This document shows positions 6,001 through 9,000 of a DNA stretch of 15,415 nucleotides, piece by piece. The stretch covers positions 1 to 15,415 of the forward strand of contig JANNWY010000185.1 in the NCBI GenBank assembly GCA_031409335.1. Reading direction: 5' to 3'. The DNA comes from Chthoniobacteraceae bacterium (lineage in GTDB: Bacteria > Verrucomicrobiota > Verrucomicrobiia > Chthoniobacterales > Chthoniobacteraceae). The number at the start of each line of letters is the position of its first letter. The first letter of the stretch is position 1. Made by a program: the position numbers.

Positions 6001-9000
6001 GGGATTAGTGTGATTGCAGAGTTCAGTTGTTGGATTGGAAAGGAGGCGCGACGCAGACCTCAGTCGCAGCACTTGATTCCAATCTGCGTTCTGAAATCCG
6101 CGACCTAGAATCCCACCGGCGGTCCGCAGCAGATGTCGATCAGCGTCATCCGGAGAAAGAGAGCCCTGTCGTGAGCGAGTTGCTCGGAACGACTGAGGCG
6201 CTGGTTGGACATGCGTCGCCCATTAGCAAAGCAGATGCCACGGCGAGGAAGGCGTTTGGAATACTTCGAAACGCCTGTGTAAAATAGTTCGTGAACTCGC
6301 GAATCCCATCCAAACGAATCATTCGGATGAAGACCTCCGTGCGCGATTCTCGCCATGCTGGCGGCGCGTTTTATACAGACGCAGCATCGCACGCGGCGTC
6401 GGATTACACCGTTAGATGTCTGCGGACGACCTCATCGGTTAGCGCTGACACCGGCCCCGCGATCACGACAGTCCCGCGATCCATGATCGCAAATGTATCA
6501 GCCAGTTCGCGGCAGAAATCGAGATACTGCTCGACGAGAAGGATGCTGATCTTCTCCTCACCCTTGAGTCGCTGAAGTGCGCTGCCAATTTCGTCGGCGA
6601 GCTTAAAGCCGGTGGTCTGCTCCTTGCGCAATGCCTCAATACAGTCGGCGAAGCGATTCAACATGGCAGGATGCTGCTCGACGCCGTCCTTGAGCAGCAC
6701 CACCACGGTTTCGCTGGCTTCGTCGAAGAGCGGGGACTTTGGCGCGTCTTCGTTCCCGCGCAGATTTTTCAGCGATTGGTTGATCTCCGCGAGAAGGCCC
6801 GGCTCGTTGTGGTGCCCACCCCGACGGAGCAACCGAATCGCGTCGCCAATTTGGTCGATAATGTTGGGCTGAATGCCTTCGGTCGGCTCATCGAGAATCA
6901 GCACCTTGGGTTCGGTGAGCAGAGCGCGACCGATGGCGAGTTGCTGCTGCTGACCGCCGGAAAGCATGCCGCCTTTGCGGGGAAGAAACTCCTTGAGAAT
7001 CGGGAAGAGGCTGAAAACGCGATCAAGGCTGCCAGTGAGCTTCCTGCCGAGAGCGATGGCTCCGATCTTGAGGTTTTCCTCGACGGTGAGTTGCGGAAAA
7101 ATGTCGCGACCTTGCGGCACATAGCCGATGCCAGCGGCGGCGCGTGCTTCGCTGGAAAGGCTGGTGATGTCTTTCCCCGCGAGCGTGATTTTTCCTGCGC
7201 TGGGTTTCAGCACGCCAGTAATGGCGCGGAGCGTCGATGTCTTACCCACACCATTGCGACCCATGAGACAGAAACATTGGTTGCCGGGGACATCGAATTC
7301 GACGCCGCGAAGAATGCGGCTGCCACCGATGGAAAGTTCAAGGGCTTGGACGTTGAGCACGGGACAATTTGCGGGATGGTCTTAGTGGCTGCGCTTCTTG
7401 CGACCGAGATACACGTCAAGCACACGGTCATCGTTTTGCACTTCATCGACGCTGCCTTCGCAGAGCACCGAACCTTGGTGAAGGACAGTCACTTTCCGGC
7501 CTGCCGCGATCTGGCGGACGAAGACCATGTCGTGCTCGATGACCACAATCGTGTGTTTGCCGACGAGCGAGAGGAGCAGTTCGCCGGTCTTATGAGTCTC
7601 GGTGTCGGTCATCCCGGCTGCGGGTTCATCGACGAGGAGAAGCTTTGCATTCTGCGCGAGGAGCATGCCGATCTCGAGCCATTGCTTTTGCCCGTGGGCG
7701 AGCGAACCGGCTTTCGCATCGCGCTGGGATCCGAGGTTGATCGTCTTCAGGATTTCATCCATGCGATCCCGCTCGGTGCTATTGGGCTTGTGGAAGAGGC
7801 TCGCCCACACGCTGCGGCTGCCTTCCATCGAGAGCAGGAGATTTTCCCAAACGCTATGATCGGCATACACGGTCGGCGTCTGAAACTTCCTCCCGATCCC
7901 GAGCCGGTAAATCTGATATTCGTTTAGCTTCGGAATGCTGACGGTGCCTTCAAACTCGATCGTCCCCGAGTCCGGTTTGGTCCGGCCAGTGATGAGATCG
8001 AGAAAGCTGGTCTTACCAGCGCCATTGGGTCCGATGACCGTGCGCAGTTCACCGGCATCCAGATAGAAGTTGAGATCGTTGATCGCCTTGAAGCCTGAAA
8101 AACTCTTGTTCACACCCTCAGCAGCAAGGAGGAACTGCTTTTGAATGGATTCGATCTTCACGACTTGGCGGCCTCTGTTTCATGTGGCGCAGTTGACTCG
8201 TCAATCACGGTGTTCGGTTTCCCAAACAATCCAAGGAGCTTGCCGAGCAGTCCGACGATTCCCTTCGGCAGAAACAATACAATCACGACAAACATTCCCC
8301 CCAGAATGATCAGCCACAGATCGGGGTAAGCCTGCGTCGCCCAACTCTTCATCCAATTCACGCCGATGGCTCCGATGATGGGGCCAATGAGGGTGCCACG
8401 TCCCCCGACTGCAACCCACACCACCGCTTCCAAGCTCTTCGTGGTCTCCATTTCACCCGGATTGATGATGCCGACCTGCGGGACAAAGAGCGCGCCGCTG
8501 ATGCTCGCAATGAGGCCGCTAACAACGAATACGAACAACTTGTAGTTCGCAGCGGCGTATCCTGAGAAAAGCACGCGCACTTCACTATCCCGGATGGCGC
8601 GCTGCACGAGGCCAAACTTCGTGCGCGTGAGCCAGCGGCAGCCCACGAACACCGCCACGATCGCGACTGCCGTGGCGATGAAGAGGGCGCGCTTGGTTTC
8701 CGGCGAACGGATGTCCGCACCGAGAATGAAGCGAAAGTCGGTGAAGCCGTTGTTGCCACCCATCGTCATGTCGTTGCGGAAAAACATCAGCGCCGCCCCG
8801 TAGGTTAGCGCCTGGGTGAGGATCGAGAAATAGACTCCTTTGATCCGGCTGCGAAAGGCCAGGTATCCGAAGACACAAGCCAGCAATCCGGGCACGAGCA
8901 GGACCATCGCGCCTGCAAAGAGCGGAGAATAGAATGGCTTCCAGAAACTCGGCAAAAAGGTGTGCCCGAGGAAGACCATGAAATCCGGCAGGTCGCTCTT

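Follow-up and report, generated by a model that had tools for sequence, protein, structure and literature searches.

The window analyzed here, a stretch of 15,415 nucleotides from a Chthoniobacteraceae bacterium, raises the question of what controls a guanidine hydrolase operon whose first gene is separated from its promoter by a short open reading frame. An earlier note on this DNA had called that frame a candidate metabolite-sensing arrest peptide; this is also our best reading, and searches by gene, by pattern and by protein agree on a conserved upstream open reading frame (uORF).

The uORF and its neighbors in the window

The uORF lies on the minus strand at positions 6105..6212 (35 codons, putatively leaderless; ATG 6212-6210, TAG 6107-6105), and its product ends in RMTLIDICCGPPVGF. 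Within this end is the conserved core R-M-T-L-I-D-I-C-C-G-P-P (6117..6152, minus strand), of which CCGPP (6131-6117) is the putative arrest site. A sigma54 -24/-12 promoter box, recognized by its sequence and also kept in 38 loci of the set described below, stands at 6225..6240 (minus strand); the 7.9 Mb genome has 10 sites that fit the strict consensus, this one included, and the ATG follows the -12 GC of the box by 13 nt. The earlier note had likewise read a 35-codon minus-strand ORF (6212-6105) behind a sigma54 box, and its gap of about 105 nt to gdmH measures 104 nt to the ATG (6000). The motif had been said to occur once intergenically in the genome, in agreement with the single DxCCGPP in a six-frame scan; of the proposed R(L/M)T consensus, the motif itself is present, with the window reading RMT and not the RLT of that note's title. 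Immediately 5' of the promoter, a repeat search found a 12-nt inverted repeat (6250..6276). The window uORF product has no Pfam match, and four family members gave no NCBIfam match.

The downstream gene had been identified as gdmH, and this holds: the protein, a guanidine hydrolase extended at its N terminus by a His-rich segment (4522..6000, minus strand), matches 9FEK and 7ESR at E 1e-154, the next family reaching 8e-44, and keeps the equivalents (matched with the PDB chain shifted by two residues) of Thr105, His222, Trp313 and Glu344, the residues named in the accessible text of PMC11410670. Also on the minus strand are genes for an ABC substrate-binding protein (3535..4503; SsuA family over cut-off, substrate inferred), which had no match among guanidine-binding structures, an ABC permease (2730..3533), an ABC ATPase (1900..2730) and the gamma (1364..1666) and beta (949..1278) subunits of urease, both over NCBIfam cut-offs; the alpha subunit would run past the window end. 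The upstream neighbor is a urea transporter operon, urtABCDE (6404..12503, minus strand), with all five genes over their NCBIfam cut-offs.

A uORF family ahead of guanidine catabolic genes

The uORF belongs to an unnamed, widespread and apparently leaderless family that is under protein-level selection and heads guanidine catabolic operons. When loci were collected by gene, the uORF was carried by 6 of the 7 loci with a gdmH-like gene among 151 family genomes, which extends the earlier count of gdmH in 7/81 genomes, again with the ORF at 6/7; by 11 of 26 cgdA loci in 401 genomes of one acidobacterial order; and by 7/7 creatininase loci in 351 genomes of one verrucomicrobial order (2 directly, 5 before an upstream gdmH). 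The ORF was located at these loci with a scoring matrix or with loose patterns built on earlier matches, so that very distant variants could escape. The motif is absent from the other 15 of the 26 acidobacterial cgdA genomes, in which the operon layout differs, and a phylum sample of 400 genomes held no further gdmH at 1e-90.

A pattern scan of GTDB genomes, which had given 28 loci before, gave 42, of which 40 are true and 2 arose by chance; all 40 true loci show R-L/M before T, although the pattern did not demand it. The pattern also has at least 120 metagenome matches, and the second Pro, equally undemanded, is found in 119/119 readable ones among the matches listed. A shorter pattern matched in 20 of the 401 acidobacterial genomes (11 known loci, 1 lone-cgdB locus, 1 broken copy and 7 chance matches). 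A protein profile search retrieved 200 small proteins; among the 120 listed, Pfam domains are absent throughout, 119 carry CCGPP and all but one are named "hypothetical". Other annotation pipelines thus do call the gene at times. A tblastn search of plasmids with one 37-aa member as query gave no match, and an ESM Atlas search returned nothing usable. The single match in a viral scan lies inside a 225-aa ORF and reads G-P-C, and was rejected as chance. Three loci bear odd taxon labels, which may be binning errors.

Counts below refer to a main set of 125 distinct loci with 60 nt of upstream sequence, kept from 144, with 40 short metagenome loci excluded; its sources are Verrucomicrobiota, Acidobacteriota and metagenomes. 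These loci are related, falling into 48 clusters at 80% identity, and locus counts consequently overstate independence. Two unpublished genomes (G582 and G586) enter only as misses in counts, and no claim uses their sequence.

The first gene behind the uORF is cgdA at 76 loci, gdmH at 19, a creatininase-family gene at 15, and cgdB, a carboxylase gene and an ABC binding protein gene at 1 each; these 113 of 125 loci cover two unrelated guanidine pathways. In two of the remaining 12 the N-terminus of gdmH or cgdA is recognizable, four lie at contig ends and six lead elsewhere (GAF-ANTAR, 3; TonB-receptor-like, 1; biotin-lipoyl ORF, 1; unrelated or none, 1). The statement that the motif stands "always directly before guanidine/amidine genes" fails at these six loci, and gdmH, formerly taken as the chief partner, gives way to the cgdA/B-carboxylase group by 78/125 to 19/125. 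In one acidobacterial operon that was checked, UAAP1, UAAP2, urea carboxylase and allophanate hydrolase all exceed their cut-offs, and Asp, the guanidine-type residue by the criterion of K. lactis position 1330 (PMC11410670, in its available portion), is found in 6/6 acidobacterial carboxylases. Two broken copies, L245 (interrupted by an internal stop) and L043 (frameshifted), stand at sites that lack the operon, and an intact copy lies ahead of a lone cgdB (G934).

The operons that begin with a creatininase-family gene form a group of their own. In the five genomes with this arrangement gdmH was not found and cgdA was present in all; in 4/5 the operon continues on the same strand to carboxylase, AH and cgdAB, and at one locus (L287) gaps of at most 48 nt reach as far as a sugE-like gene (123.9 bits against a cut-off of 126). 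Their carboxylases carry Asn (3) or Cys (2) at the specificity site, and Asp in 0/5, which speaks against guanidine alone as the substrate theme of the family. Type III glutamine synthetase and Rieske oxygenase genes adjoin these operons; a literature search for a methylguanidine riboswitch with a Rieske oxygenase gave no match. The creatininase-family gene also weakly matches MftE (124 bits against a cut-off of 172), and the C-terminal core of MftA presumably resembles that of the uORF, which would suit a peptide acting in trans, either as a small enzyme partner or as an MftA-like RiPP precursor processed by an MftE-like creatininase. We regard such a role as very improbable: MftC is over cut-off in 0/5 genomes, one and the same peptide stands before enzymes of three unrelated kinds, it is always first in the transcript, and its tail past the core varies.

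Conservation of the peptide

CCGPP is present in 125/125 loci, including all 24 of those found by gene, and every one of the four codons available to its Gly and to each Pro occurs in the set. Among the 24 by-gene loci, codon-pair differences within CCGPP are 611 synonymous and 0 non-synonymous, bearing out the earlier observation that third codon positions vary while the protein is conserved. Synonymous swaps extend to first positions (Leu TTG/CTG, Arg CGN/AGG), and a stop occurs within 19 codons upstream in 1/125 loci in frame, the two other frames giving 94 and 50. The rest of the motif is looser than proposed (T to I/N, D to F/V, R to W): R is found in 122/125, T in 102/125 and D in 113/125, strong but short of invariant, and the Asp, a residue that might bind guanidinium, is replaced in 12/125. 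The tail after PP, one error-ridden contig aside, comprises 1 to 16 codons (mode 3) and is unconserved. A methyltransferase motif-I fragment was considered as the identity of the ORF and rejected, the frames being short and coupled to promoters.

The uORF occupies the position typical of guanidine riboswitches, and the window leader folds better than shuffled sequences (z -3.17), as might be expected if conservation concerned the RNA, as a new guanidine riboswitch, or the DNA, and the ORF were incidental. Three-base periodicity and conservation of the frame speak against this, as does RNAalifold, which in alignments of 16 and 28 sequences predicted 2 pairs and no covariation. No Rfam match was found in the window intergenic region, and no Rfam riboswitch at the window or in 54 related stretches, as the earlier note had also observed at its loci; guanidine-I was not detected in 10 genome searches with up to 150 candidates scored per genome. 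The GGAM-2 to -6 motifs, as listed in the accessible part of PMC7736828, come from other lineages and mostly lie ahead of sugE. We consider an RNA or DNA element extremely improbable and the uORF very probably a translated cis-regulator.

Promoters and a putatively leaderless start

The uORF had been described as sigma54-driven. This is appropriate for loci of the Verrucomicrobiota type, with a sigma54 box at 38/125, and does not extend to the 87/125 loci that are without one. At 32 of the 38, the -12 GC is followed at a distance of 12-15 nt by an in-frame ATG, GTG or TTG, and at 30 of those 32 the start is exactly 25 codons before the Asp; four others have a leader 26 nt longer with the same 25 codons, and two more are frameshifted. 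The distance from box to Asp is 102-105 nt in 31/38, as previously reported for most loci. All 87 loci of the other group, which includes two moved by hand from the sigma54 group, have an xAxxxT hexamer (a sigma70-type -10) followed after 5-9 nt by an in-frame ATG or GTG, compared with 5 and 11 in the out-of-frame controls. A stricter hexamer with gaps of 5-8 nt precedes 64 among 138 in-frame starts, against 1 among 111 out-of-frame ones. Shine-Dalgarno (SD)-like sequences precede 3/88 starts, and rpoN is over cut-off in 5/5 genomes.

Such promoter spacing would place these starts at, or a few bases from, +1. Because the start codon sits at the usual +1 distance from the promoter, the uORF looks leaderless, and this design would appear to survive a change of sigma factor between sigma54 and sigma70. 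The putative leaderless start and the apparent restriction of sigma54 to a minority of loci are what is new relative to the earlier note.

A leaderless frame of about 30 codons with two consecutive Cys near its end and a spacer of about 100 nt also recalls cysteine attenuators, a rival absent from the earlier note, in which uncharged tRNA-Cys would stall the ribosome at CC and free the next gene. Two Cys can suffice in mycobacteria, according to the available text of 10.1101/834739, and one broken uORF copy sits 5' of cysD. That adjacent cysD, however, has its own Cys-rich leader, which explains the link, and a cysteine or sulfur gene is first in 0/125 loci. In a control covering 26 of 29 cysD loci of related Acidobacteriota (two unpublished and one at a contig edge were left out), 20/26 have separate leaderless leaders with 3-7 Cys and TGT:TGC of 67:19, whereas the guanidine-operon family has a fixed Cys pair, TGC:TGT of 227:23 and about ten other conserved residues. 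Cysteine attenuation is a minor rival and, in our judgment, quite improbable.

A candidate guanidine switch

We propose that the uORF product arrests the ribosome in cis, in a ligand-dependent manner, and thereby turns on guanidine catabolic operons, a reading to which we give even confidence. Transcription would begin on the start codon or no more than a few bases from it, and the ribosome would load immediately onto the leaderless 5' end. After some 27-31 residues, the R-x-T-x-[IM]-D-[IV]-C-C-G-P-P end would arrive at the peptidyl transferase center; the exit tunnel accommodates a chain of this length, and the whole peptide would still be inside it when the arrest motif is read. Guanidinium would then be held between the peptide and 23S rRNA, and the ribosome would stall at Gly-Pro/Pro. 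Since the tail after PP is variable in length and unconserved, arrest would occur during elongation at GPP, and this site is likely. That guanidine induces the arrest we take to be balanced between yes and no. The stalled ribosome would mask about 15 bases past the prolines, which may block a C-rich Rho loading stretch and/or free the downstream start, so that the operon is expressed; the expression platform probably differs between clades.

In the window, the 104-nt spacer (6001..6104, minus strand) is predicted to form a long hairpin, and a scan of its minus strand found no terminator-like site. The gdmH start codon region (5995..6006, minus strand) is predicted by folding to be sequestered in free mRNA by the uORF 3' end (6109..6120, minus strand; pair probability 0.76-1.0), a pairing also recovered as inverted repeat I3. 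The 12 bases that begin at the first Pro are predicted to pair with the gdmH start, and a ribosome stalled there would release it, although swapped tails pair with that start almost equally well (10.4 vs 12.1 bp). A single family-wide anti-SD was rejected: native tails exceed shuffled ones in 15/34, 15/23, 8/16 and 4/5 cases, not better than controls, and swapped ones in 25/57 (p 0.75), with 11/18 in the gdmH group (p 0.06). Only one clade, of 12, has a 5-bp helix between tail and SD with two single compensatory changes. Folding tests across the family found no common expression platform, and no shared intrinsic terminator was found, a hairpin-plus-U scan flagging 14/108 spacers at scattered places.

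C exceeds G in the 50 nt after PP at 77/84 sigma70-type loci (26/30 clusters; the background set, 35, is small), and at 20/36 sigma54 loci, which is not significant; four loci were dropped from the count. The first Pro is CCT in 23/84 loci of the sigma70 group (background 20%) and 10/36 of the sigma54 group (9%), an enrichment that selection for an anti-SD might produce, though kin are not independent in these counts. Rho is present in 5/5 genomes, over cut-off in 4. A Rho route as in SpeFL is weakly favored for Acidobacteriota, as is start-codon release for some gdmH loci.

The same peptide might instead respond to another signal, such as urea, a methylated guanidine or nitrogen status, or work with the opposite sign, the ligand releasing a default stall and the ribosome that reaches the stop opening the downstream start. 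Urease follows gdmH in the window, creatininase-operon carboxylases with Asn or Cys adjoin glutamine synthetase and Rieske genes, and three loci lead to GAF-ANTAR regulators; the opposite sign would also accommodate the C-rich anti-SD candidates past the stop in some loci and an opening energy that is lowest with the ribosome at the stop (median 4.1 vs 5.3 at PP). A urt or ure gene is first in 0/125 loci, however, and sigma54 probably reports nitrogen status already. The cgdAB route has no urea intermediate, according to the Fig. 1 legend of PMC11410670. We hold another signal or sign to be rather unlikely.

The invariant CC next to PP further brings to mind metal or thiol sensors like CruR and CutF, in which a Cys pair binding Ni, Zn or Cu, or reading redox, would govern the PP stall. 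Urease is a nickel enzyme. So is GdmH, as stated in the accessible text of PMC11410670, and CruR and CutF combine Cys motifs with a proline-rich stall in the published descriptions available. As most partner genes encode no nickel enzyme, nickel is weakened as the signal: the biotin carboxylase route accounts for 78/125 first genes, and a metal transporter or chaperone is first in 0/125. No signal peptide is visible and there is no CXXC; CC abuts GPP and would stay deep in the tunnel, whereas CutF, as far as its available description goes, requires export. Metal sensing is a minor rival, and an unlikely one.

Guanidine-induced arrest at the uORF would add to the few metabolite-sensing arrest peptides that are, to our knowledge, structurally understood (TnaC, SpeFL). 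In Verrucomicrobiota, sigma54 would supply a nitrogen-limitation input. We tentatively entertain, at slightly less than even confidence, the full proposal that the ribosome and its leaderless nascent peptide form a direct guanidinium receptor, the first guanidine sensor other than a riboswitch, which would replace the riboswitch in two abundant soil phyla, move between sigma54 and sigma70 promoters as a cassette and arrest through a new C-C-G-P-P motif. A 2025 review (PMC12186494, in its available sections) names riboswitches as the sole receptors known for guanidine besides transporters and enzymes, and expects others. No guanidine-linked leader peptide was found in the literature searched, subscription journals and supplements being outside its scope, and matches to CCGPP were unrelated by title. 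Lists of uORFs in supplements, e.g., the source data of PMC12992588, could hold family members.

The family is a testable candidate: it offers a clear motif, a predicted site of stalling and no fewer than 125 natural variants. If the proposal is true, riboswitch and nascent peptide converge on one regulon. The uORF is, moreover, a marker for guanidine use that riboswitch scans miss in soil Acidobacteriota and Verrucomicrobiota, and it points to an unstudied creatininase-glutamine synthetase-Rieske branch of guanidino-compound catabolism.

Comparison with known systems

SpeFL senses ornithine and TnaC tryptophan. Like these, the family is a short uORF conserved as protein (34 aa in the case of SpeFL) that precedes a gene for handling a metabolite, with conserved C-terminal residues and, in the larger clade, a C-rich stretch under the predicted footprint. 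Unlike them, it shares no visible sequence with either, appears leaderless and occurs in other phyla; SpeFL arrest occurs when the stop codon occupies the A site (10.1101/604074, in the text available), whereas the family has a variable tail after PP. The uORF would thus work like TnaC and SpeFL by analogy and is no member of those families.

With the RAPP/RGPP/HGPP peptides (ApdP, SecM-like, CruR, CutF) it shares x-G-P-P near the uORF C-terminus, RGPP and HGPP being arrest motifs in the accessible text of PMC12992588, in which guanidine and urea are not mentioned. It differs from them in reading C-G-P-P in 125/125 loci, with Cys in place of Arg, in being too short to exit the tunnel, in its catabolic partner enzymes and in having no signal or membrane segment, which most RAPP/RGPP peptides possess according to the same text. 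CruR and CutF, as described in the sources available, sense copper through separate Cys motifs, whereas the family CC adjoins GPP, with no hydrophobic leader by inspection, no CXXC and no metal homeostasis gene downstream. The mycobacterial polycysteine attenuators (Ms5788A) are similar in having a leaderless frame of about 30 codons, with Cys residues in succession close to its end, and a spacer of about 100 nt; they differ from the family's fixed CC within a long conserved motif, its TGC codons and the lack of cysteine genes downstream.

Finally, the regulon is that of the guanidine-I to -IV riboswitches (gdmH, cgdAB, carboxylase, allophanate hydrolase, ABC transporter, sugE-like), although here there is no Rfam match or conserved structure and it is the reading frame that is conserved. 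Cyanobacterial gdmH is under NtcA and guanidine-I, as described in the available text of PMC12704784, and the uORF loci would follow the same two-input logic.

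Leader peptides and operon types at other loci

Loci of cysD in related Acidobacteriota were read as a control for the alternative that the uORF, the leaderless leader ORF ending in CCGPP, is a cysteine attenuator. Leaderless leaders of 22 to 27 codons are present at 20 of these 26 loci (L255-L274), approximately 160 to 270 nt upstream of cysD, and fall into two or three sequence types. Each contains 3 to 7 Cys residues, encoded mostly by TGT, and these leaders are likely to represent cysteine attenuators outside mycobacteria.

The operon headed by a creatininase-family hydrolase (loci L224, L226, L228, and L285-L289) runs on into genes for the carboxylase, allophanate hydrolase, and CgdAB, and once also includes a sugE-like gene. 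Its carboxylase carries Asn or Cys at specificity position 1330 (K. lactis numbering), and the operon possibly constitutes a hitherto undescribed pathway whose substrate is a substituted guanidine. Also encoded are a type III glutamine synthetase, an ABC transporter, a deacetylase-like protein, a Rieske oxygenase, and an SDR.

In three metagenome loci (L117, L137, and L164), the uORF precedes a gene for a GAF-ANTAR protein, and its target may thus be a regulator instead of an enzyme. Control of cgdA operons by a protein regulator may be an alternative. In cgdA operons devoid of the uORF (L083-L096), the first gene encodes a Vgb-like beta-propeller, with repeated ATAG/CTAT boxes discernible by eye upstream of it. 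A LysR gene adjoins the operon in five loci that do have the uORF. Verrucomicrobial-type uORF loci also occur on contigs of 5-18 kb in records titled Pseudomonadales, Bifidobacteriaceae, and Methylomirabilota (L019, L042, and L047), reflecting either binning error or transfer.

Genes surrounding the uORF in the window

Ahead of urtA lie genes for two similar secreted proteins (12715-13659 and 13986-14897), neither of which is matched in Pfam or NCBIfam; by eye, the pair looks like outer-membrane barrels. The 318 aa of UrtE (6404-7360) match its 230-position model in two stretches, which implies a long insertion.

In the urease region, AATGACC heptamers form an inverted array (1262-1358) between ureA and ureB that weakly matches microRNA models, and an Rfam match to 5_ureB_sRNA, over its cut-off, runs antisense to the region on the plus strand (502-793). 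Within the window, the operon contains no hypAB. GdmH of the window carries a His-rich N-terminal extension of approximately 105 residues (5680-6000), which could hold nickel and which the solved enzymes do not have.
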